A DNA stretch of 64,000 bases from contig JAFSTN010000044.1 of the NCBI GenBank assembly GCA_017450485.1, forward strand, positions 72,792-136,791, in the 5' to 3' direction. A program made the translations under genes and the position numbers. Shown one piece after another: positions 28,162-47,931 of this stretch. Source of the DNA: Lachnospiraceae bacterium (lineage in GTDB: Bacteria; Bacillota; Clostridia; Lachnospirales; Lachnospiraceae). Below the pieces are notes generated by a model. The model had not been told where the DNA came from. It was given only the letters and a program-made list of their open reading frames with translations, and did no database searches. Each line of letters begins with the position of its first letter. The first letter of the stretch is position 1.

Positions 28162-29412
28162 TTATCTATACCTAATATTCAGATCCACTCTGCCTTCGAT
28201 GCCGTCTACCTTACCCTTGGAGGTGTACTGCCAGTAGTCGTAGTAGCCTTCGTAATCGGGCTCATCGGTGTACTGGGCGAGCCACGCATGGTAAAGCGTC
28301 AGCTGCTCGGCATCGAGCTTCTTATTCCACCAGTTCTTCGAAGCGTAGATGCCGGCTTCATAGCCTGAATTTGCGATCGTCTCGCAGAAAGCTCTGGTGA
28401 TCGCGGTCCTCTTTTCCACATCCAGATCGTCAGCCCGGCCCGATCCGCCGGCAGACTCCGAGTCTATGAATATCGGCAAGTCGAGCATATAGAGCTTGCA
28501 TTCCTCGACCACCATACTGGCCTCTTCGATGGCCTCGGTCTCATTTACAGCCTGTGAGAAAAAGTACACACCCACGGGGATACCTGCCTTGATCGCTCCG
28601 CGCATGTTTTCTTTAAAATACGAATCCAGGATCAACGATCCGGATGAAGCACCTCTGTATCCGCATCTGATGATCGCATATTCTATACCGGCCGCCTTTA
28701 CGGCCTCCCAATCTATCTCACCGTTATGTCCGGAGACGTCTATGCCCAGCTTACCCGCATCCGTATATGCGTCAGCATCGATATTCTCGCTGCCGTCGCC
28801 CTCGACTTCCGCCGATCTCTTCTCGGTATCCTCGACCTTCACATCGACCTGATCCTCGGTAAGCACGAGAAAAGCGATATCGCTCAGCGCTTTGAACTCC
28901 AGATCCTTGCTGATCTTGATCATGGTCTTGGTGCGGGGGACTATATATCCCTCAAGCTCGTCCAGTTTGACGAAATAATCGCCTTCACGGAGATGATCCA
29001 CATAAATGATGCCGTCCATATCATCATCCGTATATATGCCGACACCCTCAACATCGGCCACGAACTTCTGACCGGTAACCAGATGCCCCATTCCGTCGAT
29101 GACCATGATCCTCAGATCCTGACCGATGGAATCCATCATCACATTGACCTTGAGGCCGGTCTCGATATTCACATCCGAATGGAACTGCGACGAACCTTTA
29201 TCAAAAAAATCCTCATCATTCAGGAATCCGCTCAGATCGTCTCCGATCTGTCCGCCCTCAGCTTCCGGATCGGATGCAACCACAGTAGCAGGGGCAGGGT
29301 GTCCGAACCGTCTCCTGATGGTATCCCAGTTCATCACGAGCACCAGCACCAGGATGCCGATAACCATGATCACTCCCATCAGAATAGATTGCCTGACCCA
29401 TTTCGATCTCAT
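28162..29412 (-). CDS. Membrane-anchored GH25 muramidase (lysozyme)
   Basis: 416 aa. An N-terminal TM anchor and a beta-sandwich-like spacer precede a GH25 domain (GIDVSGHNGEIDWEAVKAAGIEYAIIRCGYRG, FIDSES, YDYWQYTSKGKVDGIEGRVDLN). Confidence 0.85.
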   Translation of the reverse strand: MRSKWVRQSILMGVIMVIGILVLVLVMNWDTIRRRFGHPAPATVVASDPEAEGGQIGDDLSGFLNDEDFFDKGSSQFHSDVNIETGLKVNVMMDSIGQDLRIMVIDGMGHLVTGQKFVADVEGVGIYTDDDMDGIIYVDHLREGDYFVKLDELEGYIVPRTKTMIKISKDLEFKALSDIAFLVLTEDQVDVKVEDTEKRSAEVEGDGSENIDADAYTDAGKLGIDVSGHNGEIDWEAVKAAGIEYAIIRCGYRGASSGSLILDSYFKENMRGAIKAGIPVGVYFFSQAVNETEAIEEASMVVEECKLYMLDLPIFIDSESAGGSGRADDLDVEKRTAITRAFCETIANSGYEAGIYASKNWWNKKLDAEQLTLYHAWLAQYTDEPDYEGYYDYWQYTSKGKVDGIEGRVDLNIRYR

Positions 29413-30399: not shown

Positions 30400-31836
30400 C
30401 TACACAGACAAAAGATTTCTCACATATCCGAGGTCAATGAGCGTCCGCGTCTCGACCAGACCGAAGAAAAGCAGAGATACACAGGAGGCCGTCAGAACCA
30501 CGATTCGGAATGCACGTTTTTCCCACAATCCCACAGCTCTGCTGCCGAGATAACACGTTGCCAGCAGGACCGGCAGCAGATAGCGCCCCTGCGGCTGGCA
30601 GTCTATCAGGTATGAATTGAGAACAGATGCAACCACGCTCCCTATATTGAGTACAGTGCAAAAAACAAATACGGGAACGTCTCCGTGCCTGCACAGATAT
30701 ATCCCCAGCCAGGCGTATATCGCAATATACAGCAGCCCCATAACAGAGAAAAAGAGCATATGACCTTCATAGTATATGCTCGCAGCCGCGAATGATCTGT
30801 ACGACAGAGCGAACCACTTCGGCTCATGCTCAAACATATCGGACAGCGCATATCCTTTGGAAGCCATATGATATGTAGGCGCCTGCTCCTCTACCGGTGT
30901 GGTCGGGTTCTTGTCATAGTCTGAATACATTTCCGACATCTGCGCTTTCGCCTGTGCCTTGTCGAATCCGTAATAGTGAAGATCAAGCAGGGCCCGTCCG
31001 GCCAGAATTGCGAATGCTATGCCGGCTATCAGGATATACCTGCCAAGCAAGCTCTTGCGATTATTAATTTCTGATTTAATTAAACGACATATCAAAACAA
31101 CAAACGTCAGGAATAAAGTGGCGAAATAGTAAGGCTTTCCGAGCAGCATCAGGCCATACATGATTCCCAGAACGATACAGCTGATGACGATGCGTATGTC
31201 AAATATATGACCGTGACGTGCCACATTCGGATCTGTCTGTCCGGATACTGTTTTCCCTTCAAGAGTCCTCCACAGGAAGCTGTCCCTGTCGGCAAGCATT
31301 GCGATCGATATGAATGCCAGGAGGAAATCTTCGGCATCGGCAGTCACATATGAGAATATATACCAGGCTTGTACACATATGCCGAATCCCAGCATAAGCC
31401 AGTTATTATCACGTATTTTGCGGATTATATACACGGTCAGGACTGCCATTAAAAGAAGATTTGGCATACGGTAATACGGCAGATTTTCCATGAACTGTTT
31501 GAAAACGTATGATATCTTACTGAATATCAGGAAGTAAGGGGTATAATTGCAGACTTTGGTATACCCATATCCGCTGAATGTGTCACCCAGACCGACACCC
31601 ATCTGTCGCATATCCGGCCATATCCACCGGCTCATACACCAGTCCATGCAAGCCTTCACGTCGAATTCATCCGGATGTTTACCGGGCTCGGAAAGAAATG
31701 CGATCATGCACGCCACCAGAAACGCGCCGATCAATATAAGTACAGACATATACACATAGATACGGTTGCGGTTCTGCGTGCTCATATCACGGTTCTGCGC
31801 GATTCTGCCGCCGTCGGCCGTCTTTTTTATATCCAT
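30400..31836 (-). CDS. Large polytopic membrane protein, candidate GT-C-type glycosyltransferase
   Basis: 478 aa and about 12 TM segments. An acidic first external loop (HPDEFD) follows TM1, as in GT-C enzymes. It is clustered with a GtrB-like gene. No family could be assigned by eye. Confidence 0.4.
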   Translation of the reverse strand: MDIKKTADGGRIAQNRDMSTQNRNRIYVYMSVLILIGAFLVACMIAFLSEPGKHPDEFDVKACMDWCMSRWIWPDMRQMGVGLGDTFSGYGYTKVCNYTPYFLIFSKISYVFKQFMENLPYYRMPNLLLMAVLTVYIIRKIRDNNWLMLGFGICVQAWYIFSYVTADAEDFLLAFISIAMLADRDSFLWRTLEGKTVSGQTDPNVARHGHIFDIRIVISCIVLGIMYGLMLLGKPYYFATLFLTFVVLICRLIKSEINNRKSLLGRYILIAGIAFAILAGRALLDLHYYGFDKAQAKAQMSEMYSDYDKNPTTPVEEQAPTYHMASKGYALSDMFEHEPKWFALSYRSFAAASIYYEGHMLFFSVMGLLYIAIYAWLGIYLCRHGDVPVFVFCTVLNIGSVVASVLNSYLIDCQPQGRYLLPVLLATCYLGSRAVGLWEKRAFRIVVLTASCVSLLFFGLVETRTLIDLGYVRNLLSV

Positions 31837-32939
31837 TTACGCACCTCCGGAATGAGTCTGAGAACCAGGACGATACACAGCGCTACCGCGAAAGCCACGA
31901 TATCCTGTATCGCCACCGCAAAAAGCCGGTTCATGAATCTGCACATGTTCCAGTAGATCATATGTGTGCCGGTACACACAAAGTCCGCAAACAGATATAT
32001 ACCGAACGTGGCCGGTGCCAAAAATCCTATCACCCGTCCTAAGCCCCCATCAGCCTTCAATTTGATCAGGAAGCAATAAACTGCCACGCTCTCAACGACC
32101 ATAAGCAGGGTCTCTATCTCGGTGAATGATACGAATGAGTTCCCGCCGCTGAGCCGGAACTCCGCTCCCGCCAGAACCATATTTCCCGCAAAAGCAGCAA
32201 GAAATACGCCGATCAGCCACAGATCGGAGATCTTCAGACCGCCTCCGGCGCGCAGTTCGTCGCGATACAGGTAACATGCGTGGCCTATGAAGAGATACAT
32301 CACGGCGCATCCGATCATAGGGAGTTTGAAGTTGGGATTCAAAGCAGCTTCCGGACACAGGATCGTCACTGAAGGGATCACCGAAACATATACCGAAGCG
32401 ACTGCCAGCACTGCTATCAGGGTCCTACGGGACATGGCCGGCGACGATGCATCTGCCCCGGAAAACATCGCAGCAACCCTCTGCATGGCCGGCATCATGA
32501 TCATAAGTCCGAGATATGTATACAGGTACCAGAATGCATCCGTTGCTCCGTCCCGCCACAGCACCTGTATGTATCCGGCGATATATGCCCCGGCCTTCTG
32601 AAGCACGGTTGCTCCCTCCGGAAGTCCTGTCGGATATGTGTGTGACAATATATGCCATACGTGATAGAAAAGTGACATTACCGCCAGAACGACGGCTATC
32701 CGGACGATCCTTTTTACATAAACCCGGTAATCATCGCTGCGATGCAGCAGATTGTACCCCGTGATCATAAAGAATCCGGGCACAGTGATCTTGGTGATAA
32801 AGATAACGCCCACAGTCACATACCACGCGAGCGACTTGGGCGTAACCTGAGCTAAAACTTTGGAATTGCAATGGTTGATGATCACGAACGCACAGCCGAT
32901 GATCCTGTACAGATCGAGACCACTCAGTCTCTTATTCAT
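31827..32939 (-). CDS. Acyltransferase family 3 (OafA/YrhL-type O-acetyltransferase)
   Basis: 370 aa and about 10 TM segments. The N-terminus LDLYRIIGCAFVIINH is typical of Acyl_transf_3. Confidence 0.75.
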   Translation of the reverse strand: MNKRLSGLDLYRIIGCAFVIINHCNSKVLAQVTPKSLAWYVTVGVIFITKITVPGFFMITGYNLLHRSDDYRVYVKRIVRIAVVLAVMSLFYHVWHILSHTYPTGLPEGATVLQKAGAYIAGYIQVLWRDGATDAFWYLYTYLGLMIMMPAMQRVAAMFSGADASSPAMSRRTLIAVLAVASVYVSVIPSVTILCPEAALNPNFKLPMIGCAVMYLFIGHACYLYRDELRAGGGLKISDLWLIGVFLAAFAGNMVLAGAEFRLSGGNSFVSFTEIETLLMVVESVAVYCFLIKLKADGGLGRVIGFLAPATFGIYLFADFVCTGTHMIYWNMCRFMNRLFAVAIQDIVAFAVALCIVLVLRLIPEVRKWI

Positions 32940-35128: not shown

Positions 35129-38100
35129 TTAATAACGTATGTTCATATCTACATTACCGCTTATACCGGCGACTGAGCCTTTAGATGTGTACTGCCAGTA
35201 GTCGTAACGGGTGGCGGTGTAGGTCGGTGAGGCCGCATACTGTGCGAGCCAGATCTTGTATCCCGTGAGCTGTGAAGCGTTCATATAGCTGGTAAACCAC
35301 GTCTTATTCGCATATATACCGGCCCCGAATCCGGAGTTGCGTACCGTATTGCAGAACGCTTTACATACCGCTGTTCTGGTGCCTGCGTCGATCGCATCTC
35401 CACGGCCTCCGGAGTGCTCCACATCGAGGAATATCGGCAGACTTAAACCGTATCCGCTGCAGAGCCCGATCGCCATGGACGCTTCCTCGACGGCTTCGAC
35501 TTCATTCGTCGCCTGGGTGAAGAAGTAAGCTCCCACTGCCAGACCTGCTGCTTTTGCACCCTGGATATTGGATCTGAACTTCGGATCCTCGATCAGGGCT
35601 CCGGTGGTCGAGCCTCTGTATCCGCATCTGATGATGACATAGGATACACCCGAATTGCGTACGGCATTCCAGTCGATATTGCCGTTCCACTTGGACACAT
35701 CTATTCCCATAGTACCACTGCCCGCCTGCAGATGTCCATCTGATGAGAAAGTATACTTCGCTCCCTGGATCACCTGCTCACCGGTCACGTAATTACCGTT
35801 CTTATCAAAGAAATATGTCGAACCGTTCAGCGTCTGCCATCCGGTGTATTTGTAAACGGCATCGCCGTCTCCGCCTTCGATATAGAACCCGACAGCAGAC
35901 TCATAATCAGCCACGGTCGCTTCAACATATTTACCGTCAGAAGTCTTGATATAAACCTGCCTTCCCGAAGAATCCTTAAGTTTCGCTTTCGGATCGGCAG
36001 CTGCAGTTACCGTAACGGATACTGTCGCTTTCTTGGAAGTATCTGCCTTTAATGTGGCAGTGACCGTTGCAGATCCGGCTTTTACGCCCTTTATATTTCC
36101 GTTCCCGTCCACTGTGGCGATGTTCGCATCGCTTGATGCCCACGTCACACTCTTATCGGTCACGCCGGATACAGTGGCGGTAACCTTGGATGAAGCCCCC
36201 ACCTTGATCGATACGGAAGTGGGGTTGAGAGTTATATTTGCCACATTCTTATCTGCTACCGTAACCGTACAGGAAGCACTCTTGGATGTATCGGCGGTAC
36301 TTGTTGCGGTGATGGTGGCTGTACCGGCTTTCTTGGCACTCAGGCTGCCGCCGGATACCGTTACAACATTACTGTCCGATGAAGTCCAGTTAACCGCAGA
36401 TGTGGTAGAGTTATCGGACATTTTAACTGCAGCCGTCAGCGATGATGTGTCTCCGACGGTCAGACTCAGAGTCTTCGGAGATACATCCACTGATGAAACC
36501 GTTACACTTACGGGAGGCGGATCAGGAGTGCTGACCGCTCTTACGGTAACAGTACATGATGCGCTCTTTGAAGTATCGGCTACACTTTTTGCCGTGATAA
36601 CGGCCGTTCCGGCAGATATAGCTGTAACAGTTCCGCCGGATACAGTGGCCACACTTGTGTTTCCGCTGTCCCAGGTCACATCTTTATTATCTGTTCCGCT
36701 TACCGTTGCACTCAGGCTTCCGGTTTTACCTTCTTCCAATTCCAGGCTCGTCGGAGATACCGATATTTCCACGGATGCGGGAGGATCAGTATTAGACGAC
36801 TGTCCGCCGCTGTTTTCAGATCCCGACGACGGGTCTGTCGAAGTGCCCGCAGAGGGATCGGTCGGAGTATCTGTCGCAGGTGTTCCCAGCTGGTCTGCCG
36901 GGGTATCTGTCGGTGTGTCCGGTGTTGTATTTGTATTCTCGGTTCCCGCATAAGCCAATGTCCTGTAGAAAGATGTTGCAGTCACACCTCTCGCCTGTTT
37001 CATATAACCGACAACCAGACCGCTCTTATTGGGATCCGGGATGGAGCTCTTGTCGATGGCCTTATAGCCTTTCTCGCTTCCGCTGACCAGGGTTTTGCTC
37101 GATTCTACCCACTCAACCGTATCCTTCAGCGAAGATTCGATGGCGGTATCCTGTACTGCGGTATCCTCTTTGGCTACGTTTACTTCGGCCTCGGTCTTCA
37201 CCTCATCGGCCACGTCAACTTTCTTGTATGCGATCGTATCGGTAACCTTGACGCCTTTGACATCTGCCGGCATCACATAATCCTCATACTCGGGACCTTC
37301 AAGAGGTTTCATCGATACATTATATGTTCCGTTCGGAACCTCGGTATGATACATCAGGCCGTCTTTATTCTCATCGGACCAGTTGTATTCCTTACCGGAG
37401 TCACTGGTCACGGTCACCTCGAAAGGAATACCGCTGATCAGCTTATCTGTCGACTTGTTGGCAAACTTGATCTTTAAGTCGGACTGTACGGAGGAAACCT
37501 TCATCACGATCGTAACAGTCTTATCTTCGATCACGATCTCCTCGGGCTCCTCAACTTCCTCAACAACATCTTCAACATCTTCTTGCACTGCGGAATAACC
37601 CGCACGGGCAGCCACGACAGCGTTCAAACCGCTTTCGCCGATCACATATATGCCATCGGTAGAAGCTCCCACCGTATCAAAAGATGCTACCTGCTTCTTG
37701 ACAGTCTGAGCGTTGGCAAATATCACGCCGGTCACGATCGCTGTTATGAGTACACATACACCGGTCACGACGATCAGCCTGTCGCCCATTGACATATTTG
37801 AGAAAAAGCCTGCAGACTTAGCTTTCTTTTCGTATGCATCTGCCTTCTTTTCATATGCTCTGGCAGATTTAGCGGACTTGGCAGCAGACTTGGCATATTG
37901 GGCTTTTGCCTTGGCGTTCTTCGCATTCTTTGCCGCAGACCTGGCATTCGCCTTTGCGCTTCGAGCGGATGATCCGGCTTTTGCCTTGGCGGATCCGGCG
38001 GATCTTTCCTTATGTACCTTAGGCTTGGCTGCACGCCCCCCGTCCGTCCTGTGATACAGCTCCTCGGCCACGGCTGCAGCCTCAAGTTCGGCAGTTTCGG

Positions 38101-38836
38101 ACATGCTGTAGAAATCGAAGTCTTCATCTTCGTCTACAGGCTCCTCATCTTCATAGGAAGCCATCTCACTGTATGCCCTGTATGAATCGTCAATATCGGA
38201 ATCCTCGTCATACCGGTCATCGGCATATCGGTCATCGGAGGAAGTTCCGCGTATATCTTCGTCAGCCCCGCCTATCACACTTTCTTCTGCCAGGGCGCGT
38301 TCTGTCTCCGCCAGTATCGCAGCGGATATATTCATGGTCTCGGAGCCGATCTCATGAGGCTCGTCCGGCTCGGAATCGGACGCATAATCGGCTGCGTCCG
38401 GCTCAGCATCGAATTCAGTCACAGTCGCGGTCGCATACGATTCATCAGCGGTCACGTTCGTCCCGGCATCATCCACCGTGGCATCCGCGTCACCGTCGAG
38501 CTCGCCATCCACGCTCATCTCGGCAGCCAGCGAAGCCATCTCGGCTTCCACTATCTCTGCGGCGATGATCTCCGTACGCTCACCTACGCGAGGTTTCCCG
38601 GACGGCTCATCCTCGATGTCGGCTGAATCCCATCCGGCTGTCTCATCCTCAACAGCTACCACATCCCACTCAGAGGTATACTCCTCATCGAACTCTACAT
38701 CCGCCTCTTCATCATCCTCGGCAGCGCCGAACAGGAATTCGTCACGTCCGTACTCGGCTTCCTGCCTTTTATGTCTTTCTTCGACCCTCTTTTCAAACCT
38801 GCTCAGTTTCGAGGGTTTGTTCATACTTTTTTTCAT
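35129..38836 (-). CDS. Large surface protein: cytoplasmic acidic/basic disordered region, TM, beta-sandwich spacer, three Big_2 Ig-like domains, cell-wall-binding repeats, C-terminal GH25 muramidase
   Basis: 1235 aa. Residues ~1-345 are D/E-rich then K/A-rich, and a TM lies near 350-372. There are three Big_2-like repeats (...VTWDSGNTSVATVSGGTVTAISAGTAVITA...). A CW_binding-type repeat is present (GWQTLNGSTYFFDKNGNYVTG). The GH25 domain reads GIDVSKWNGNIDWNAVRNSGVSYVIIRCGYRG, FLDVEH, YDYWQYTSKGSVAGISGNVDMN. Confidence 0.85.
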   Translation of the reverse strand: MKKSMNKPSKLSRFEKRVEERHKRQEAEYGRDEFLFGAAEDDEEADVEFDEEYTSEWDVVAVEDETAGWDSADIEDEPSGKPRVGERTEIIAAEIVEAEMASLAAEMSVDGELDGDADATVDDAGTNVTADESYATATVTEFDAEPDAADYASDSEPDEPHEIGSETMNISAAILAETERALAEESVIGGADEDIRGTSSDDRYADDRYDEDSDIDDSYRAYSEMASYEDEEPVDEDEDFDFYSMSETAELEAAAVAEELYHRTDGGRAAKPKVHKERSAGSAKAKAGSSARSAKANARSAAKNAKNAKAKAQYAKSAAKSAKSARAYEKKADAYEKKAKSAGFFSNMSMGDRLIVVTGVCVLITAIVTGVIFANAQTVKKQVASFDTVGASTDGIYVIGESGLNAVVAARAGYSAVQEDVEDVVEEVEEPEEIVIEDKTVTIVMKVSSVQSDLKIKFANKSTDKLISGIPFEVTVTSDSGKEYNWSDENKDGLMYHTEVPNGTYNVSMKPLEGPEYEDYVMPADVKGVKVTDTIAYKKVDVADEVKTEAEVNVAKEDTAVQDTAIESSLKDTVEWVESSKTLVSGSEKGYKAIDKSSIPDPNKSGLVVGYMKQARGVTATSFYRTLAYAGTENTNTTPDTPTDTPADQLGTPATDTPTDPSAGTSTDPSSGSENSGGQSSNTDPPASVEISVSPTSLELEEGKTGSLSATVSGTDNKDVTWDSGNTSVATVSGGTVTAISAGTAVITAKSVADTSKSASCTVTVRAVSTPDPPPVSVTVSSVDVSPKTLSLTVGDTSSLTAAVKMSDNSTTSAVNWTSSDSNVVTVSGGSLSAKKAGTATITATSTADTSKSASCTVTVADKNVANITLNPTSVSIKVGASSKVTATVSGVTDKSVTWASSDANIATVDGNGNIKGVKAGSATVTATLKADTSKKATVSVTVTAAADPKAKLKDSSGRQVYIKTSDGKYVEATVADYESAVGFYIEGGDGDAVYKYTGWQTLNGSTYFFDKNGNYVTGEQVIQGAKYTFSSDGHLQAGSGTMGIDVSKWNGNIDWNAVRNSGVSYVIIRCGYRGSTTGALIEDPKFRSNIQGAKAAGLAVGAYFFTQATNEVEAVEEASMAIGLCSGYGLSLPIFLDVEHSGGRGDAIDAGTRTAVCKAFCNTVRNSGFGAGIYANKTWFTSYMNASQLTGYKIWLAQYAASPTYTATRYDYWQYTSKGSVAGISGNVDMNIRY

Positions 38837-38842
38837 AACACT

Positions 38843-39886
38843 TTATTTATCCTGCGGATACTTATTGATCGCATACGCGATACGCTGAGCCAGAGCCTTT
38901 CTGCCCTCGTCGGTCAGGCGTATATAATCCGCCTCACGGCTCAAGTCCACATATTTTGAATAGTTATCCTGATTAATGGTTCCATAGAAATTGTCCAGGA
39001 ACGACACCGAAAGCTCCGTACATGTATTCAGCTCGTTATAGAAGTAGTTGGAAAGAGTACCATTTCCGGAGTCAACCTTGTCCGGGTCATATGCTTTGCC
39101 TTCAGCATCCACTCCATCTGTGTAGAAAATACTGGACACGATGATCCTGACATACGGATAAGCCTGTTTGATCCTGCGGATAGAGTAATTCAGCGAACCG
39201 ACTATCGTACATCTTTCCTCATCATCCTTAGGATTCTCTATGGCTCTGCCCTCAAAGTAATCCGACGGATCATACATGATCACGATCACATCCAGTTTCT
39301 CATAATCGACATTCTTCAATACTTTAACGGATTCCTGAGTGAAATTGCCGTCTGCATGGTATTTGTCGGTCACACGGTCTATCTCCGAAAAGTCGCCCGT
39401 GCATATCGCATCGGCCAGATACGTCAGCGAATATATATCATCGGGGTAGTTCTGCTCGATCATGGCCAGATTTCTGGTGGCCAGCGTCGGGTACGGAAAA
39501 GCTGCATTATACACGGTCACGCCCGCGGCATCGGCTATCATCCGGTCCAGCGCCTGCTCATCATTCCGCGACATCGCCAGATCACCGTTACCCAGCAGAA
39601 GGACCGTAGTCTCGTCATCAAAGTCATGTCCCGCATAATCATCGGGAGCCATAGGGATAAGTTCATCCAACACTTCTATGTCAAACATAGATGTGTCCTC
39701 ATTGGGATCCAGTGAGATCCTTTCTCCCCTGTTCCAACGTATCAGTTCATATGCGGAAATACCCAGCACCAGAACGATCGCAGCGATAAGGATCATATGG
39801 ATGTTTATTCTGAAACCCTTTTTCGCGGGCTCGTCCGTTTCCTCCTCAGAGGTAATATTCTCTTGTTCAAATTCAGTATTGCTCAT
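38843..39886 (-). CDS. Membrane-anchored SGNH-like protein with degenerate catalytic motifs
   Basis: 347 aa with an N-terminal TM anchor. SGNH-like blocks are recognisable, but block I reads LLLGNGDL (no Ser) and block V reads DYIRLTDEG (Arg where His is expected). Confidence 0.4.
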   Translation of the reverse strand: MSNTEFEQENITSEEETDEPAKKGFRINIHMILIAAIVLVLGISAYELIRWNRGERISLDPNEDTSMFDIEVLDELIPMAPDDYAGHDFDDETTVLLLGNGDLAMSRNDEQALDRMIADAAGVTVYNAAFPYPTLATRNLAMIEQNYPDDIYSLTYLADAICTGDFSEIDRVTDKYHADGNFTQESVKVLKNVDYEKLDVIVIMYDPSDYFEGRAIENPKDDEERCTIVGSLNYSIRRIKQAYPYVRIIVSSIFYTDGVDAEGKAYDPDKVDSGNGTLSNYFYNELNTCTELSVSFLDNFYGTINQDNYSKYVDLSREADYIRLTDEGRKALAQRIAYAINKYPQDK

Positions 39887-41015: not shown

Positions 41016-42191
41016 TTACTCAAATACAAAGAAATCCCCGGTCTCGATGCGGTGATCTATCTCCTCAACCGCTGCCGGGTATTCGGCCAGCCACAGCGCA
41101 TAAGCCTCGTCCCAGGTGCGGTCATCACCTGTAACGGAATCGGCAGCCATTGCAGCTTCAGCGGATCCTGAGCCGGATCCGGTCCGGCCGCCTGCTCTGT
41201 GGTCGGGCAGATCATAGTGTGACCTCAGATACTCTCCGAGAAATACGGTACACTTCTGCGCTCCGACGGCATTGGTATGAACTCCGTAGTCACTGAAGTC
41301 ACGTGAGAAATCCAAACCCATCTCATCATAATACTGATTCATATCCAGATAATCATATCCCGCGGCCTCTACCACCTCTCTGATATGCGCATATTTCTCT
41401 GCGTCATCTTCTTTCTGCTCATAAGGAGAAACATAGAAAAGCGCATGAGCATCGATCTCATCGAGATATGCCAGCAGGTCGGTAAGCGCCTGCTCCTGAT
41501 ATGACTCGAGCTCCATAGGCACTGCATCGGCCGGAGCATACGGGGTATCAACGGGGCCAACCTGTCCCGTGATCTTATATCCCTTATGCGGGTCAGGATA
41601 TGTCAGGTCCCATCCCCTCCACTGATCGGGATCCGCCAGTGCGGGCCAATTTGAATGATACTTGAAGATGTCGAAATAATACGTATATTTCGAAGTATCT
41701 TCAGCCAGTGGATTCAAATGATCGGTCAGTGAAGCATTGATCAGGGCTACACGATCAGGCGAATACTTTATATTGTCCGTAACCTCACGCGTGTACGCCA
41801 TGTTGTTGGTGAGGCCGATCTCCAGTCCGACATACATACGCATTTCGAACATATAGAGTGCAGGTGACTGCGTCTTCTCCGCCTCTTTCACCAGATACAT
41901 GCCTGCAACGGGACGCTGGACATTGCTGGCCAGAGGGTATGCCTTGATACCATACTCGCCGTAGAGTTCAGGTGTCACGCAGCACGAATAGGTCGGACTC
42001 GAGCCTATCATCACGATATCAAGCGAGTTCTCAGGCTCCGCATAGAATCCCATGAAGCGTGTCTTCGTATCGCCCGCAGGCCGCAGTATATACGACAGCG
42101 GGACGAGCACAATGAGAAAGATGACTGCGAAGACAGCCGCGGAGATCATTGGGCGTATGAGGTTGTGAGGTTTATTTGTTCCTGTCATCAA
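41016..42191 (-). CDS. DltD-like membrane-anchored SGNH acyltransferase/esterase
   Basis: 391 aa with an N-terminal TM anchor. Block I is IVMIGSSPTY (GSS as in DltD) and block V is DYGVHTNAVG (DxxH). It lies directly downstream of the MBOAT gene. Confidence 0.6.
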   Translation of the reverse strand: MMTGTNKPHNLIRPMISAAVFAVIFLIVLVPLSYILRPAGDTKTRFMGFYAEPENSLDIVMIGSSPTYSCCVTPELYGEYGIKAYPLASNVQRPVAGMYLVKEAEKTQSPALYMFEMRMYVGLEIGLTNNMAYTREVTDNIKYSPDRVALINASLTDHLNPLAEDTSKYTYYFDIFKYHSNWPALADPDQWRGWDLTYPDPHKGYKITGQVGPVDTPYAPADAVPMELESYQEQALTDLLAYLDEIDAHALFYVSPYEQKEDDAEKYAHIREVVEAAGYDYLDMNQYYDEMGLDFSRDFSDYGVHTNAVGAQKCTVFLGEYLRSHYDLPDHRAGGRTGSGSGSAEAAMAADSVTGDDRTWDEAYALWLAEYPAAVEEIDHRIETGDFFVFE

Positions 42192-42218
42192 TTCGACTCC
42201 GAATCTGTGGATATACCT

Positions 42219-43793
42219 CTAAAATCCCTGATATATAAATTCTGCCGCGCTGTAGCCCGGGCCGTACCGGCCGAGCAGGATCACGTAGAACAGCAGCGCA
42301 AACCATATGATAAATCTGAGCACGACCGGACGGGTTGCAATGGCGTCGCGTATGTCGCTCTTAGTCCTGTTCTTATAAACATCAACCGCAAACAGGATGA
42401 TCAGACTCACTATCGCGATAATGATGTCGGCATAAGTAAGGCCGAGCACACTCACATCGTTCATAATACGCATGCCCTGCTCGGAAAAACCAGATATCAG
42501 GGCACCGATCACAGTCCCCGATGCCACACTTTTAAATCCGCATCCGAGCAGCGTGACAGCATCGCCTACGGACGACGCGCGGAAGAAAGCCATCGACAAT
42601 GCAAAAAGCAGAAACGTACGGATTATGCGTACTGCTTCAAGTAAACGATTGGCAGGGTTTACACCCATCCGCTCCCACAGTTTCTTAAAGGGCTCGTCCA
42701 GAGTCTCCTCAAGCACGATATAAACCCATTGCAGGAGTCCCGATCCTATCACGAATGTCATATTGGCTCCGTGCCACAGTCCGATCGTAAACCAAAGCAC
42801 CAGCATGGCGATATATGTGGAGATACGTTTCGCACGCTTCTTTGCTTTCTTATCTTTCCCGTCAGAAAGGCGATTCTGCAGTGCGGTATGCACCCGTGAC
42901 CTCAGCAGCGGATAGAAGACATACTCCTTGAACCATACGCCGAGAGTCATATGCCAGCGGCGCCATAATTCTGCGATGGAGCGGGAGAAAAAAGGCATAT
43001 CAAAGTTCTCGGGCAAGCGTATACCCAGACACTGCGACAGGCCCAGCACAATATCCATAAGACCGGAGAAATCCGCATACAACTGTATCGTAAAGCACAC
43101 AACAGCCAGCCACACATACCTGCCGGAATAAGTCAGGGGATCGTCATATACGGTCGCAACGATCACTCCGAGGCGCTCCGCGATAACAAGTTTCTTGAAG
43201 AATCCCCACAACATCCGCTGCATACCGCGCGCAACAGCTTCAGGATCAAACTCGTGCTCAGCATAGAATGACTGCGACACGAGACGATACTGCAGGATCG
43301 GGCCGGAGACAAGAGTCGGCGCGTACATTCCGAAAGCCATGAAGCGAAGCAGATTGGTTTCCGGAACCGCAATGCCGTTATAGACATCTGTCAAATAACT
43401 GATCAGGGTGAAAGTGTAATAAGACAGACCGAGCGGAACGAGCAGGCCTGAGAGGGACTCACTCGCATCCTCATTCACCAGTCCGACTGCGAATCTCAGA
43501 TACTTAAGGATCACCAGGATCACAATAAGTGCAACGATACCGGTCACGAGGCACGCACGACGCTTAATACTATATCCATCAAATCGCACAATAAGCCGCG
43601 CCATCGCATATATCAATACGGAACTGAGCACAGGGTACAGCGCCAGTACAGGGTGATCGCCTGCCAGGCAGAATGCGATACTGCCAACGAGAATTACGCC
43701 CCACTGAAGCTTACGCGGGGCGAGATAATACAGGATCAGGACTATAGAAAAGAATATAAGAAAATAAAAATCCGTAAGGTTCATAGTTAACAT
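42219..43793 (-). CDS. MBOAT-family membrane O-acyltransferase (DltB/AlgI/PatA-like)
   Basis: 524 aa and polytopic. The conserved segment AELWRRWHMTLGVWFKEYVFYPL contains the MBOAT histidine region. Confidence 0.85.
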   Translation of the reverse strand: MLTMNLTDFYFLIFFSIVLILYYLAPRKLQWGVILVGSIAFCLAGDHPVLALYPVLSSVLIYAMARLIVRFDGYSIKRRACLVTGIVALIVILVILKYLRFAVGLVNEDASESLSGLLVPLGLSYYTFTLISYLTDVYNGIAVPETNLLRFMAFGMYAPTLVSGPILQYRLVSQSFYAEHEFDPEAVARGMQRMLWGFFKKLVIAERLGVIVATVYDDPLTYSGRYVWLAVVCFTIQLYADFSGLMDIVLGLSQCLGIRLPENFDMPFFSRSIAELWRRWHMTLGVWFKEYVFYPLLRSRVHTALQNRLSDGKDKKAKKRAKRISTYIAMLVLWFTIGLWHGANMTFVIGSGLLQWVYIVLEETLDEPFKKLWERMGVNPANRLLEAVRIIRTFLLFALSMAFFRASSVGDAVTLLGCGFKSVASGTVIGALISGFSEQGMRIMNDVSVLGLTYADIIIAIVSLIILFAVDVYKNRTKSDIRDAIATRPVVLRFIIWFALLFYVILLGRYGPGYSAAEFIYQGF

Positions 43794-43828
43794 GAATGCC
43801 CGGTGCTATCTGAAAAGATCGTTCAGCA

Positions 43829-44557
43829 TTATACAATAAGGATATTCTCACCGTCTCCAGCGCCCTCATCAAGCAGAAGATGTTCGATATGCGGCACCAC
43901 GTCCAAAGTTTCCAAAAGCTTTCCACCTGATCTGTTACCGGCATACTGCTCTATCATCAGGTGTGACAGTCCCGAGATATATCTCGTATCCATCATATCG
44001 GGAGATACGGCATTTATATGCACGCCCGTACCGGCATATTCGGATGCAAGGCTCTTCATCAGACCAAGAAGCGCATATTTCACTGTGACGTATGCACTCT
44101 GGAATTCCGGAACATCGCCCTCAGTCACCGAAGAAAGCACAAATACGACACGTCCGTTTCGATTCTTTTTCATGTCGGGCAGAAAAGCCTGCAACGGCAT
44201 GACAGTTGAGCGGATGGCCAGCAGCATGGAGGCCTCGAAATCCTCCTCATCTGTCTTCACGAACTTTTTCACCGCATACGGTGCCATGGGAATGTGGACG
44301 ATGTGGTCGGGTATGGCAGCACCCGAAGCCGCTCCGGCACTCCGGCGAACAGTATCGATCAATTCCTCAATGTCTTCTTTATCCGACAGATCGGCATGTA
44401 CAGGGCGGATGCGTCCGTCATGCTTCCGCACAAGTGCTTCAAGGTTCTCATTCATGGTGCGATAGGTCGCCCAGATCGTTTCATATCTCTCTGCCACACT
44501 GTCGATCAGTGCACAGCCCAGATCCGAGGATGCTCCCAACACCAGAAGAACACTCAT
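43829..44557 (-). CDS. Short-chain dehydrogenase/reductase (ketoreductase-like)
   Basis: LVLGASSDLG (Rossmann) and S...YVTVKYAL (YxxxK) are present. Start taken at ATG 44557, which has SD AGGAG 7 nt upstream and forms an ATGA overlap with the MaoC stop. Confidence 0.8.
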   Translation of the reverse strand: MSVLLVLGASSDLGCALIDSVAERYETIWATYRTMNENLEALVRKHDGRIRPVHADLSDKEDIEELIDTVRRSAGAASGAAIPDHIVHIPMAPYAVKKFVKTDEEDFEASMLLAIRSTVMPLQAFLPDMKKNRNGRVVFVLSSVTEGDVPEFQSAYVTVKYALLGLMKSLASEYAGTGVHINAVSPDMMDTRYISGLSHLMIEQYAGNRSGGKLLETLDVVPHIEHLLLDEGAGDGENILIV

Positions 44558-44985
44558 GCCATCACTCCTATCTCCATCCTGCCACGGCATACTTTATCAC
44601 CGTGCTGATTACGAATGGCTGTTTTCAGTGTGAAGAATCTGTATTCGTCATTCACATCGGTCACTTCACCGGTCACGGTCAGCTCATCGCCGATCATCAC
44701 CGGCTTCGGGAACTTCACTTCCACGCTGCGGATCAGACTGTACCGCCCCGGCAGATATACACCGGCCAGAGTCGACAGAAAAGAGGACGTCAGCATCCCA
44801 TATGCCACACGCGCATCAAAACCCTGCTCGTGTGCGTACGCTTCATCATTATGCAGGGGATTGATATCCCCCGTGATATCACGGAAGCTGCTCATCATCT
44901 CCTCGGTAACCGTTACCGAGAAACTCTCCGTCATCCCGATATGTATATCTTCATACTTGTATTCGTTCATAACTCCGCAGATCAC
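44554..44985 (-). CDS. MaoC-like (R)-specific dehydratase, hotdog fold
   Basis: 143 aa. FRDITGDINPLHNDEAYA is the MaoC hydratase motif. The GTG start overlaps the ACP stop (GTGA); an ATG at 44970 is an alternative. Confidence 0.8.
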   Translation of the reverse strand: MICGVMNEYKYEDIHIGMTESFSVTVTEEMMSSFRDITGDINPLHNDEAYAHEQGFDARVAYGMLTSSFLSTLAGVYLPGRYSLIRSVEVKFPKPVMIGDELTVTGEVTDVNDEYRFFTLKTAIRNQHGDKVCRGRMEIGVMA

Positions 44986-45221
44986 ACCATCGACTCGATC
45001 AGGTCGACCATCTCACCGACGTTCTTAAGCGTCACGATCTGACCCATGTTGAACTTCACACCGAACTGCTGCTCTACGGCAGCCAGCAGATTGATGTGCT
45101 CCAGAGAATCCCAGTCCTCGATATCATCAGCTGTGGTCTCATCCGTAACAACGATAGATTCATCATCAAATACGTCACGGAATACTTCGTTCAGTTCTTC
45201 AAATATTTCTTCTCTTGTCAT
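44982..45221 (-). CDS. Acyl carrier protein
   Basis: 79 aa from ATG 45221 (MTREEIFEELNEVF...). The phosphopantetheine site motif is DWDSLEHINLL. The track ORF is extended upstream into the FkbH gene end. Confidence 0.85.
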   Translation of the reverse strand: MTREEIFEELNEVFRDVFDDESIVVTDETTADDIEDWDSLEHINLLAAVEQQFGVKFNMGQIVTLKNVGEMVDLIESMV

Positions 45222-45244
45222 GCCCTGTCCTTTCCAATACCATA

Positions 45245-47026
45245 TCACTCTACAGTTATAACTGTGTTTCGCACTTCCCGGTCTCCGCTTACATCCAGAG
45301 ACCACACCGTACCGTTTCCCTTTTCTTCAATAAGTTCAAAACCCATCGTCCCATAGAACTCTCTCACCATCCCGTTCTTCGCGGTCGGTAGGTAATATCC
45401 ATACAACATCTTCAGCCCGCGCGCACGTGCGGCATCCACTACGGCATCCAGCATCGCGCACTCCATATCACGCTTGAGTACACGGCAGCTCATCAGCCAC
45501 AGCCTGATATGCAGTACCTGTGCCTCCGGATCGATCTCACCCATCACGAGCGACACGATACCGTTATCTCCGAACTTGTCGGAGAGCTGTCCGTAGAGTG
45601 TGATGTATCTGTCGTCACCGGCATACCGCTCTATATCCGCCACAGTGCATCTGAGCGTGGTCAGATTGAACTGGTTGGACTTATTCGTCAGCTGGGAGAT
45701 ACGGTTATAATACAGCGGCTCAAACGGTGCGATATGCGCTGTCATCTTAAGACCCAGCAGGTATTCATGATAGTCGGTGTATGCAGCCTGCAGATGTGCA
45801 CGCTCGGCATTTGCCTTATACATCGTGTTGCGCTGCTTATCATCTTCGGATAAGCCGATCACTTCGAAGTACCCGTTTCTGTCTATGCGGCGGATGTACT
45901 CCTCGGGCTGGCCTATATCCGGCACCGCAACTCCCGGCACCTGATCCTCCACGATCATGCGCTCGGCAGGGTTATCATCAACGAAGACGAAAGAATCCGG
46001 GAGTATGTTGATTGCAGAAGCTATATCCACAAGATTGCGGTCCTTCGGCTCCCAGTTGGCTCTGATCTCTATGAAATCATCAGGCCGAAGCACCCCGTCG
46101 GGATGCTCCAGTCCGGCCATTGCGTTGGCCTCATCATTTTTTGAATCCACGTTCAGGAGTACACCTATGCTTTTCTGCTCCTTCAGGTAAGTCTGGAACT
46201 CGGCATACGTCTCCGCAACCGCGGTTTCCTGACCTATCTCCAGGTTCTCCGGCCCGTCATCGCCCACGATGCCTCCCCAGAGGGTGTTGTCGAGGTCGAG
46301 CGCGAGAGCTTTTTTGTTACGGCCCCAGACAGCCTTGATGATATGCGAGAGACTGAACGCAAACTCGGGAATCGCCTGCATCGAGCACATATATTTGTAC
46401 ATATTCCAGAATGCGGGATCAATCCATTTATCCAGGCCGTATGCGGCCGATAGATAGTTGATGTCGTGGATATAGAATGCCTCATGCCCTGCTGCATAAC
46501 CGGCGAAAAGCTCATTCAGACGATTCACATACCGCACCCGTCCTGAGGGATCCACCGCCTCGTAGTTGCCCATCACTCGATAATAAGGATACTCGAAGTT
46601 ATTCTGGATAACAGGACACATATACCTCGATGCCAGATGCTCCCACATGCTCCTGAACCGCTCAAACTCGGCATCCAGCATGGCATCGACATCAGACGAC
46701 GGCATCCCGGGCGACGGGAGATGCTCGATATTCCTGTACCCGGTGTGGATATAGATCAGATCCGGAGAAAAAGAAACAAGCTCCTTAGGATCAAACATCG
46801 CATCCTGATAGTACTGTGCATACTCCGACTCGTAGAACTCCGGCTCGATCCCGTAGTTTAACAGGAACAGCTCCAGGATCCTGATAAAATCATGTGTCGT
46901 GGAGCCGCCCAGCACCGCAATGCGCTTGTGCATGCGCGACGAAGAGTCCGCCAGCAGCTGCCTGCGGAGAGACTTCGATTTCTTGAGTATATATTCACTG
47001 TCAAAAGGGTATTCAAGTTCTTTCAT
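45245..47026 (-). CDS. FkbH-like HAD-IIIC phosphatase/acyl-loading enzyme
   Basis: 593 aa. The HAD motif LDLDNTLWGG (DxDxT) is present. The C-terminal GNAT-like region carries LMSCRVLKR, the Cys region conserved in FkbH-type glyceryl-loading enzymes. It is followed by an ACP gene. Confidence 0.75.
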   Translation of the reverse strand: MKELEYPFDSEYILKKSKSLRRQLLADSSSRMHKRIAVLGGSTTHDFIRILELFLLNYGIEPEFYESEYAQYYQDAMFDPKELVSFSPDLIYIHTGYRNIEHLPSPGMPSSDVDAMLDAEFERFRSMWEHLASRYMCPVIQNNFEYPYYRVMGNYEAVDPSGRVRYVNRLNELFAGYAAGHEAFYIHDINYLSAAYGLDKWIDPAFWNMYKYMCSMQAIPEFAFSLSHIIKAVWGRNKKALALDLDNTLWGGIVGDDGPENLEIGQETAVAETYAEFQTYLKEQKSIGVLLNVDSKNDEANAMAGLEHPDGVLRPDDFIEIRANWEPKDRNLVDIASAINILPDSFVFVDDNPAERMIVEDQVPGVAVPDIGQPEEYIRRIDRNGYFEVIGLSEDDKQRNTMYKANAERAHLQAAYTDYHEYLLGLKMTAHIAPFEPLYYNRISQLTNKSNQFNLTTLRCTVADIERYAGDDRYITLYGQLSDKFGDNGIVSLVMGEIDPEAQVLHIRLWLMSCRVLKRDMECAMLDAVVDAARARGLKMLYGYYLPTAKNGMVREFYGTMGFELIEEKGNGTVWSLDVSGDREVRNTVITVE

Positions 47027-47157: not shown

Positions 47158-47931
47158 ATGTTCTCATATGACGACTACAGAGAGATAATACAGGCTGTCA
47201 AAGACAGCGGACGCGTAAACAAATATCCCGAAGCGCTCGGAGCAGATGAGTTTGCCATCATGCGACACGATGTCGAATACAGTGTGGAGCGTTCATATCA
47301 GATGTCTCTGGTCGAAACGGAGATGGACTTCACGAGTACATGGTTCTTCCAGTTCACGAACAACAGCTACAATCCTTTCTCAAGGACTACCAAAGACCGC
47401 ATCTACAGAATGCGTGATAACGGCCACACGATCGGCCTGCATTTCGCACTCGACGGTGAGACCGACATGGAAGTGATCCGGCAGCAGATACCGAAGCAGC
47501 TCGAGATCATGTCATATATGCTCGGCTTCGAAGTCAACCAGTTCAGCATCCACAGGCCGCCGTCGGCAGCACTTGCGGCGAACTTCAAGTATCCGGGCAT
47601 CATCAACGCATATCAGGATGATTTCTTCAGCTATCAGGAAGGCGTGGATGACAACACAGTCCTGGATGTGAAGTATATGTCGGATGCGAACCACATCTGG
47701 AGATACGGCTATCCCACCCGCGAAAACATCCTGAATCATAAGAAAGTCCAGATACTCACCCACCCCTTCGGATGGTGCGAACACGGCTACGACAATCATG
47801 ATAACTATGTGGCTCTCGCCAAAGAGAAATACAAAGAGATGATCGTCTCGATCGATGATGAATGCAAGGACTTCAAAGAATATCTGGACGAGTTTCTCGG
47901 TGCGGAGATCGATCTGAAGATGAGATCATAA
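47158..47931 (+). CDS. Hypothetical protein, possibly a divergent polysaccharide-deacetylase-like fold
   Basis: 257 aa with SD GAGGTG upstream. Segments FAIMRHDVEYS and GHTIGLHF resemble metal-dependent deacetylase-like barrels, but this is a weak by-eye call. It is the only plus-strand gene inside the locus. Confidence 0.3.
   Translation: MFSYDDYREIIQAVKDSGRVNKYPEALGADEFAIMRHDVEYSVERSYQMSLVETEMDFTSTWFFQFTNNSYNPFSRTTKDRIYRMRDNGHTIGLHFALDGETDMEVIRQQIPKQLEIMSYMLGFEVNQFSIHRPPSAALAANFKYPGIINAYQDDFFSYQEGVDDNTVLDVKYMSDANHIWRYGYPTRENILNHKKVQILTHPFGWCEHGYDNHDNYVALAKEKYKEMIVSIDDECKDFKEYLDEFLGAEIDLKMRS

Follow-up and report, generated by a model that had tools for sequence, protein, structure and literature searches.

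A candidate carrier-dependent MBOAT-SGNH acylation cassette with an FkbH-type loader in a Lachnospiraceae cell-wall polysaccharide locus

A stretch of 64,000 nucleotides (nt) from contig JAFSTN010000044.1 of a Lachnospiraceae bacterium (assembly GCA_017450485.1) is as a whole called the window here, and its positions are used for all coordinates not assigned to another locus. The subject of this work is a block of six co-oriented open reading frames (ORFs), all on the minus strand and embedded in the long cell-wall polysaccharide locus of the window. In a sequence-only reading this block had been described as a Dlt-like pathway in which an FkbH enzyme replaces the adenylating enzyme, and the six genes were indeed recovered between 41016 and 47026. 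They are listed below in the order of transcription, together with a divergent neighbour (lengths in amino acids, aa).

45245..47026, minus strand: FkbH-like loader, 593 aa (TIGR01686, TIGR01681, PF21211 and motifs)
44982..45221, minus strand: discrete acyl carrier protein (ACP), 79 aa (PF00550, WDSLEH)
44554..44970/44985, minus strand: MaoC-type (R)-hydratase/dehydratase, 138-143 aa (PF01575, GDINPLH)
43829..44590, minus strand: classical short-chain dehydrogenase/reductase (SDR), 242-253 aa depending on the start (PF00106 adh_short, GASSDLG, YVTVK)
42219..43793, minus strand: membrane-bound O-acyltransferase (MBOAT), 524 aa (PF03062, H281/H341, C-terminal FIYQGF)
41016..42188, minus strand: membrane-anchored SGNH-fold protein, 390 aa (predicted structure, GSS, D298/D301, H305)
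47158..47931, plus strand: conserved 257-aa protein, divergent from the FkbH gene, whose membership in the system is uncertain

Five of the six block proteins pass curated thresholds in Pfam or NCBIfam profile searches, the exception being the sixth protein. The only overlap in the block is that of the MaoC and SDR genes, which share an ATGA or, with the longer start, 37 nt, while everywhere else neighbouring genes are separated by about 11-35 nt; the genes are therefore tightly packed but not all translationally coupled, as had been proposed for several of them. A promoter and terminator scan gave counts no different from those of shuffled sequences and says nothing on the operon limits. The closest relatives belong to Lachnospiraceae, and identical proteins are present on ruminant gut metagenome contigs.

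The assignment of the first gene product as an FkbH-like HAD-IIIC loader, made originally from its DxDxT motif and SCRV cysteine, is borne out by scores of 264.8 bits against TIGR01686 (cut-off 146.65), 58.3 bits against TIGR01681 (35.75) and 40.2 bits against PF21211, FkbH_N (27). The protein comprises an FkbH_N domain (35-230), a HAD-IIIC phosphatase domain with the motifs D244-x-D246-x-T (LDLDNT), S295-K296-N297 and D350-D351, and a C-terminal domain with an invariant S513-C514-R515 (LMSCRV); its N-terminal and HAD parts match PDB 3slr (E 4.5e-51). Relatives from a polyketide synthase (PKS) context were found by tblastn against plasmids, in tetronate-type operons of Streptomyces and Methylosinus (FabH-like, FkbH-like, ACP, E2-like, hydrolase), as a HAD-IIIC gene in the nonribosomal peptide synthetase/PKS (zwittermicin) cluster of Bacillus thuringiensis pBMB400, and in a PKS on plasmid p1 of Burkholderia sp. 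FERM BP-3421. The window protein is 26-31% identical over its full length to these PKS-context proteins, and in a joint alignment with the tetronate-operon FkbH proteins, the pBMB400 protein and the Burkholderia FkbH domain the DxDxT, SKN, DD and SCR residues are invariant, as they are among close relatives. With this score and these catalytic residues, the concern that the 593-aa protein might not be FkbH-like did not materialise. OzmB has 366 aa; the window protein has an extra N-terminal domain, as tetronate-type FkbH proteins do. The mechanism described for FkbH proceeds from 1,3-bisphosphoglycerate through phosphoglyceryl-S-enzyme and glyceryl-S-enzyme to glyceryl-ACP (PMC9057759, PMC7489565). 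The adjacent small protein, for which a DSL site had been noted, is a discrete ACP (PF00550, 29.3 bits against a gathering score of 20.8), with its phosphopantetheine site in WDSLEH.

The two following proteins were also correctly recognised as a MaoC dehydratase (PF01575, 73.1 bits against 27) with the Asp/His hydratase motif GDINPLH, and as a ketoreductase-like enzyme, more precisely a classical SDR (adh_short PF00106, 87.1 bits against 26.6) with a glycine-rich GASSDLG and a Y-x-x-x-K motif, YVTVK. The same four functions are found in one protein in the loading module of Burkholderia sp. FERM BP-3421, which we take to be the producer of FR901464/spliceostatin: MaoC (10-98), adh_short (280-467), FkbH (716-1034) and PP-binding (1156-1216). 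The window MaoC matches the N-terminal MaoC domain of this module (P ~6e-7), while no similarity is detectable between the window SDR and the ketoreductase of the module. This loading module reportedly dehydrates glyceryl-ACP and reduces the 2-ketone, yielding L-lactyl-ACP. Work on lankacidin cites pyruvoyl-ACP or lactoyl-ACP formed from 1,3-bisphosphoglycerate (PMC6162330). By analogy with the fused module and with that work, lactyl-ACP is the most likely product of the window cassette; of the glyceroyl and lactyl groups considered in the sequence-only reading, the latter is thus favoured at this locus because both MaoC and SDR are present.

The fifth protein is an MBOAT, as had been called (PF03062, 51 bits against 27). 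Its closest solved structure is DltB (6bug, E 3.7e-25), and its two invariant histidines, H281 (RWHMT) and H341 (WHG), both align to DltB. The best NCBIfam match is likewise DltB (TIGR04091), at 158.4 bits and below the equivalog cut-off of 375; identity as a DltB equivalog was rejected on this score and because the shuttle is fused to the protein and is not a separate DltX. The C-terminal end, F519-I-Y521-Q-G-F524, constitutes a PatA-type FxYxxF tyrosine-shuttle motif, and 73 of 74 members of the MBOAT clade end in FxYxxF; the intergenic gaps of the block leave no room for a separate DltX-like small ORF. The function of FxYxxF as an acyl-tyrosine shuttle has been experimentally established for PatA and DltX: DltB transfers D-alanine from DltC to DltX, a microprotein whose FxYxxF tail supplies the acceptor tyrosine, whereas PatA uses acetyl-CoA, acetylates the FxYxxF fused to its own C-terminus and hands the group on to PatB (PMC12148441).

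The sixth protein had been described as a membrane-anchored, DltD-like SGNH protein with GSS and DxxH motifs. Searches of Pfam and NCBIfam, and of the PDB with both the single sequence and a profile, gave nothing above threshold. Among its relatives (737 matches), several are named SGNH/GDSL hydrolase by NCBI, and an N-terminal hydrophobic helix and the invariant residues G63-S64-S65, N90, D298, D301 and H305-T-N are common to them. An AlphaFold model computed with 37 sequences (mean pLDDT 82.4) places a transmembrane helix at ~12-34, and its top Foldseek matches are to PatB of Neisseria gonorrhoeae (7tlv/7trr/7tjb; probability 1.0, E only 2.7e-3), followed by E. coli TesA and other SGNH proteins (probability 1.0, weaker E-values). 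Sub-threshold Lipase_GDSL_2 matches occur in 19 of 37 relatives and DltD matches in none of the 37. The anchor helix, the GSS motif and, according to the model, the SGNH fold are thus retained from the earlier description; the DltD affiliation and the DxxH motif are not, the actual spacing being the non-canonical DxxxH (D-Y-G-V-H). Membership in the DltD family (PF04914) was rejected, as the profile and PDB searches found no match, DltD is absent from the Foldseek top 50, and hhalign against DltD-like neighbours gave 5.8% probability. On the predicted structure, the protein is probably a membrane-anchored SGNH-fold protein in a putative PatB/DltD role and not a DltD family member. A second protein of related type, 347 aa and membrane-anchored, is encoded at 38843-39886 on the minus strand; it is clearly homologous to a GDSL/SGNH family (hhalign 99.7%), and since its nucleophile Ser is replaced by Gly and its catalytic His by Arg, it is probably a conserved but inactive SGNH-like paralogue.

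The conservation of the cassette was assessed in two scans with profiles built from the window proteins and their relatives. The FkbH-centred scan, over one genome per GTDB species, gave at least 574 matching places, the best 80 of which were analysed as loci; 57 of these are fully flanked, with at least 8 kb on both sides. Within this fully flanked subset an ACP is present in 54 loci and lies directly downstream of FkbH in 51, an MBOAT of the clade of the window protein is found in 52 and any MBOAT in 55, and FkbH-ACP and the window MBOAT clade co-occur in 52. Gene order varies while content is kept (L018, L042, L059, L086, L092): the window order is also found in the cultured Lachnospiraceae bacterium XBB2008 (L018), and Clostridium sp. 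CAG:510 (L059) has the permuted order FkbH-ACP-MBOAT-SGNH-MaoC-SDR. This recurrence of the gene set in many species indicates more than chance. Tailoring genes behave as alternative additions; Lachnospiraceae bacterium 28-4 (L071), for instance, carries the VOC form, whereas Eisenbergiella tayi DSM 26961 (L093) has FkbH-ACP-MBOAT and no tailoring genes, so that a glyceroyl group would be predicted there. Thirty-one of the 57 loci carry a VOC protein, whose best match is methylmalonyl-CoA epimerase below its cut-off, and 8-9 carry MaoC and SDR, which most relatives lack; the two options are mutually exclusive, no locus among the 80 having MaoC+SDR together with VOC. In 10 of 11 loci MaoC is accompanied by SDR, and SDR and VOC are never found together. 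The SGNH partner changes with the locus type, being of the family of the window protein in some loci and of a 426-aa GDSL family in others, and hhalign between these two families was insignificant. In 22 of the 80 FkbH loci the gene after the ACP encodes a multi-pass membrane protein of 513 aa that matches neither Pfam nor NCBIfam (e.g. L001 12235-13776).

The MBOAT-centred scan covered metagenomes and 80 loci among the matches listed, which are a sample and not the closest relatives; counts required at least 3 kb on each side. Among the matches listed, a carrier lies close to 22 of the 23 MBOATs that reach at least 300 bits with the clade profile, together with FkbH or, as a DltC-like protein, with a DltA-like adenylase, and to 1 of the 10 that stay below 250 bits. 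Average-linkage clusters of 176 MBOATs follow the type of loader, and the cluster of the window protein (at least 45% identity, 58 members) occurs only in FkbH-bearing loci, a count weakened by relatedness and sampling bias.

Related cassettes were also found at a greater distance. On pSymB of Sinorhizobium meliloti (L178 4243-10077; CP140955.1, ~1047.7-1053.5 kb), beside rkpR and capsule export genes, lie a VOC-like ORF, an MBOAT ending in FLYQGF, a 409-aa SGNH-like membrane protein, an ACP and a 628-aa FkbH-like protein, and tblastn gave 40 matching Sinorhizobium plasmid records. Although its annotation reads TonB-dependent receptor, the 409-aa protein has GGST and DPGH motifs and looks like a membrane-anchored SGNH-like protein. 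Judged from gene content, this is an independent occurrence of a related cassette in a Gram-negative bacterium. Other gut-metagenome cassettes consist of a DltA-like adenylase, a 75-aa DltC-like carrier, an MBOAT with fused FxYxxF and an SGNH protein related to that of the window, some with a formyltransferase in addition (L013 1-3847; L100 7890-12623; L104, L111, L115, L142, L147 and others); these look like Dlt paralogues, as yet uncharacterised, that lie within polysaccharide loci. On 56-kb plasmids of Clostridium perfringens (L182 6676-8957) a VOC, ACP and FkbH-like trio adjoins radical SAM and ABC transporter genes, so that the VOC-ACP-FkbH unit also exists outside polysaccharide loci.

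A pathway may be proposed from these data, in which the cytoplasmic steps follow from family knowledge and the membrane and outer steps from analogy with Dlt and PatA/PatB. The FkbH-like enzyme would take 1,3-bisphosphoglycerate onto Cys514, its HAD domain would strip the phosphate, and the glyceryl group would pass to the phosphopantetheine arm of the adjacent ACP. MaoC would then remove the 3-hydroxyl of glyceryl-ACP, giving pyruvoyl-ACP by way of enol-pyruvoyl, and the SDR would act as a 2-ketoreductase to form lactyl-ACP. With the help of its conserved histidines, the MBOAT would draw the acyl group off the ACP thioester and carry it through the membrane to its own Tyr521 in FIYQGF, from which the membrane-anchored SGNH protein would take it on Ser64 or Ser65 and esterify a hydroxyl of the locus polysaccharide. 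The acyl group, the hand-off from ACP to MBOAT and the acceptor are all inferred. A succession from FkbH through ACP, MaoC/SDR and MBOAT to an extracytoplasmic SGNH protein had been put forward in the sequence-only reading, and the motifs, the fused Burkholderia module, the co-occurrence in 52 of 57 loci and the carrier linkage support it, by computation alone. With moderate confidence, we interpret the block as a carrier-protein-dependent MBOAT-SGNH system for acylation of a cell-surface glycopolymer with an acyl group derived from glycolysis.

Several points weigh against this interpretation. The support for every step is computational, and to our knowledge no glycerate or lactate ester is known in a Lachnospiraceae or S. 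meliloti polysaccharide, none having been found in the literature searched. The FkbH-centred loci are from related Lachnospiraceae and hence not independent. The SGNH assignment relies on a structural model whose Foldseek E-values are weak (2.7e-3), and the DxxxH spacing is non-canonical. In addition, seven Lachnospiraceae species have FkbH and ACP with no MBOAT within 10 kb (L057, L068, L078, L081, L088, L089, L094), no MBOAT lies within 9 kb of the FkbH-ACP-MaoC-SDR set of Subdoligranulum, and in six species FkbH is followed by an MBOAT of another clade, with no ACP (L052, L063, L065, L066, L090, L091); the coupling is therefore not obligatory. The seven FkbH+ACP pairs lie between a methyltransferase gene and phosphofructokinase/dnaX (e.g. 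L078 9336-14756), a glycolytic-gene neighbourhood that may or may not be meaningful. In the six ACP-less loci a 367-aa protein and a DUF6077 protein follow the MBOAT (e.g. L052 9998-16304), and either direct hand-off or a carrier encoded elsewhere could operate there. Finally, the characterised MBOATs with a fused motif use acyl-CoA and non-Dlt MBOAT/SGNH pathways are stated to lack a carrier protein (PMC12148441), so that carrier use by a fused-motif MBOAT would be unprecedented.

Two independent functions could lie side by side, the MBOAT and SGNH proteins being an ordinary acetyl-CoA O-acetyltransferase of the PatA/PatB or AlgI/AlgJ/AlgX kind and the product of FkbH, ACP, MaoC and SDR being used elsewhere, for instance by an enzyme that acylates a sugar nucleotide or a lipid-linked intermediate in the cytoplasm. 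A fused FxYxxF is typical of acyl-CoA users, acetyltransferases are common in polysaccharide loci (the AT3 acyltransferase gene of the window lies at 31827-32939), and the genomes that keep FkbH+ACP, with or without MaoC+SDR, away from any MBOAT agree with such a separation. We nevertheless consider it unlikely, as the cassette has no other conserved acyltransferase, a carrier accompanies the MBOAT clade in 22 of 23 cases against 1 of 10 for distant MBOATs among the matches listed, the second, separate MBOAT and DltD-like pair held by many loci could serve acetylation, and the FkbH-ACP-MBOAT association recurs in S. meliloti.

It is likewise improbable, in our estimate, that the machinery works as proposed on an acceptor other than the locus polysaccharide, such as lipoteichoic acid, peptidoglycan, a membrane glycolipid or a surface protein. 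Dlt and PatAB do act on polymers encoded elsewhere (PMC12148441), FkbH+ACP stands among housekeeping genes in the seven species mentioned, and the sequence itself identifies no acceptor; but in the window and in most relatives glycosyltransferase, Wzy-like and exporter genes surround the cassette, and the SGNH partner type follows the locus type. The probability is smaller still that this FkbH clade loads a non-glycerate unit, or that the final acyl group is not lactyl (being glyceroyl or pyruvoyl, or MaoC and SDR acting on another substrate). The low full-length identity to the PKS-context proteins and the dissimilarity of the SDR to the Burkholderia ketoreductase speak for it, as does the scarcity of MaoC/SDR among relatives, in which the base product must differ; against it stand the invariance of all FkbH catalytic residues with a score well above the NCBIfam cut-off, the fusion of MaoC, adh_short, FkbH and carrier in the FERM BP-3421 module, and the precedent of pyruvoyl- or lactoyl-ACP from 1,3-bisphosphoglycerate cited above. 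A secondary-metabolite role, as a tetronate or PKS starter pathway, was rejected, since the window contains no ketosynthase, FabH-like or PKS genes and the cassette lies among glycosyltransferases.

Regarding the wider significance of carrier-dependent surface acylation, two forms of MBOAT-SGNH system have been described, one with a carrier and separate DltX (Dlt), the other with acyl-CoA and a fused shuttle (PMC12148441). The window cassette, if correctly interpreted, would represent a third, with a carrier and a fused shuttle, loaded from a glycolytic intermediate without ATP-dependent adenylation. We put at roughly even chances the broader proposal that it belongs to a large unrecognised class of carrier-dependent MBOAT-SGNH systems with interchangeable loaders, in which FkbH would feed glycolysis-derived C3 hydroxy acids, tailored by MaoC+SDR or by a VOC epimerase-like protein, and DltA-like adenylases would feed other acids, so that glyceroyl, lactyl and further non-acetyl esters would decorate the surface glycans of Sinorhizobium meliloti and of Lachnospiraceae dominant in gut and rumen. 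Were this so, very abundant gut and rumen bacteria would carry a new surface-glycan decoration, lactyl or glyceroyl esters, with a bearing on phage receptors, immune recognition and glycan degradation, and polyketide starter-unit chemistry would be tied to cell-envelope biology; S. meliloti and cultured Lachnospiraceae would be tractable test organisms. No paper linking FkbH functionally with an MBOAT or with polysaccharide acylation was found in the literature searched, which lacked most subscription journals, and the two co-mentions of FkbH and MBOAT concern unrelated steps in the aeruginosin and suomilide clusters.

The remainder of the polysaccharide locus encodes GT4 and GT2 glycosyltransferases, a Wzy-like protein, YdjC, the AT3 acyltransferase, sugar-nucleotide enzymes, an ABC-2 exporter and GH25 lysins. 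The two GH25 muramidase genes lie at 35129-38836 and 28162-29412, both on the minus strand, and one of the enzymes, of 1235 aa, begins with an acidic region of low complexity and also contains three Big_2 domains and a choline-binding-type repeat. The divergent 257-aa protein matches no Pfam family, and its sole NCBIfam match is at chance level (16.4 bits, E 0.0023); it gives only faint hints of a CE4 deacetylase, and hhalign against a neighbouring deacetylase was negative. Its orthologues (52-76% identical) travel with the SGNH family of the window in many loci, including loci without FkbH (L011, L013).

Among polyketide pathways, a close resemblance is seen to the trans-acyltransferase PKS loading module of plasmid p1 in Burkholderia sp. 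FERM BP-3421, which has the same four functions, MaoC, adh_short, FkbH and carrier, and whose FkbH domain shares 30% identity with the window protein across 90% of the query length. There, however, the four domains are fused and start a polyketide, while in the window they are four separate proteins with an MBOAT/SGNH outlet and no ketosynthase. The tetronate glycerate operons and the methoxymalonyl-ACP pathway (FkbH/OzmB) share a discrete FkbH-like protein beside a discrete ACP, and the tetronate-operon FkbH proteins (L180, L181) have the same three domains, ~600 aa and 38-41% identity over the HAD and C-terminal region; the window differs in having no FabH-like condensing enzyme, Agg4/Agg5-like pair, FkbK/FkbI/FkbG dehydrogenases or methyltransferase.

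Among surface acylation systems, the cassette is like Dlt (DltA/DltC/DltB/DltX/DltD) in the small carrier gene beside an MBOAT and a putative membrane-anchored SGNH-type transferase, in the proposed acyl path from thioester to Tyr, Ser and polymer, and in the position of DltB as closest solved structure and best NCBIfam match of the MBOAT. It differs in the loader, an FkbH-type glyceryl transferase/phosphatase instead of an adenylating enzyme (the ORF and Pfam search revealed no AMP-binding, DltA-type gene in the window cassette, while sister cassettes in other genomes have one), in the acyl group, a putative C3 hydroxy acid instead of D-alanine, in an MBOAT ~100 residues longer with FxYxxF fused and not on a separate DltX, and in an SGNH partner with no DltD match. 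With PatA/PatB, AlgI/AlgJ/AlgX and WssH/WssI it shares the fused C-terminal FxYxxF and, as proposed, an extracytoplasmic glycan as target, and PatB is the best structural match of the modelled SGNH protein; those systems, however, use acetyl-CoA and no carrier, whereas the window cassette has a conserved ACP, a loader and tailoring enzymes. The original description as a Dlt-like pathway therefore holds for the carrier-linked MBOAT and SGNH pair and not for its build, which resembles PatA/PatB rather than DltB/DltX/DltD; a carrier linkage like that of Dlt combined with the fused FxYxxF and PatB-like SGNH protein of a PatA/PatB-like build suggests a hybrid of the two systems.

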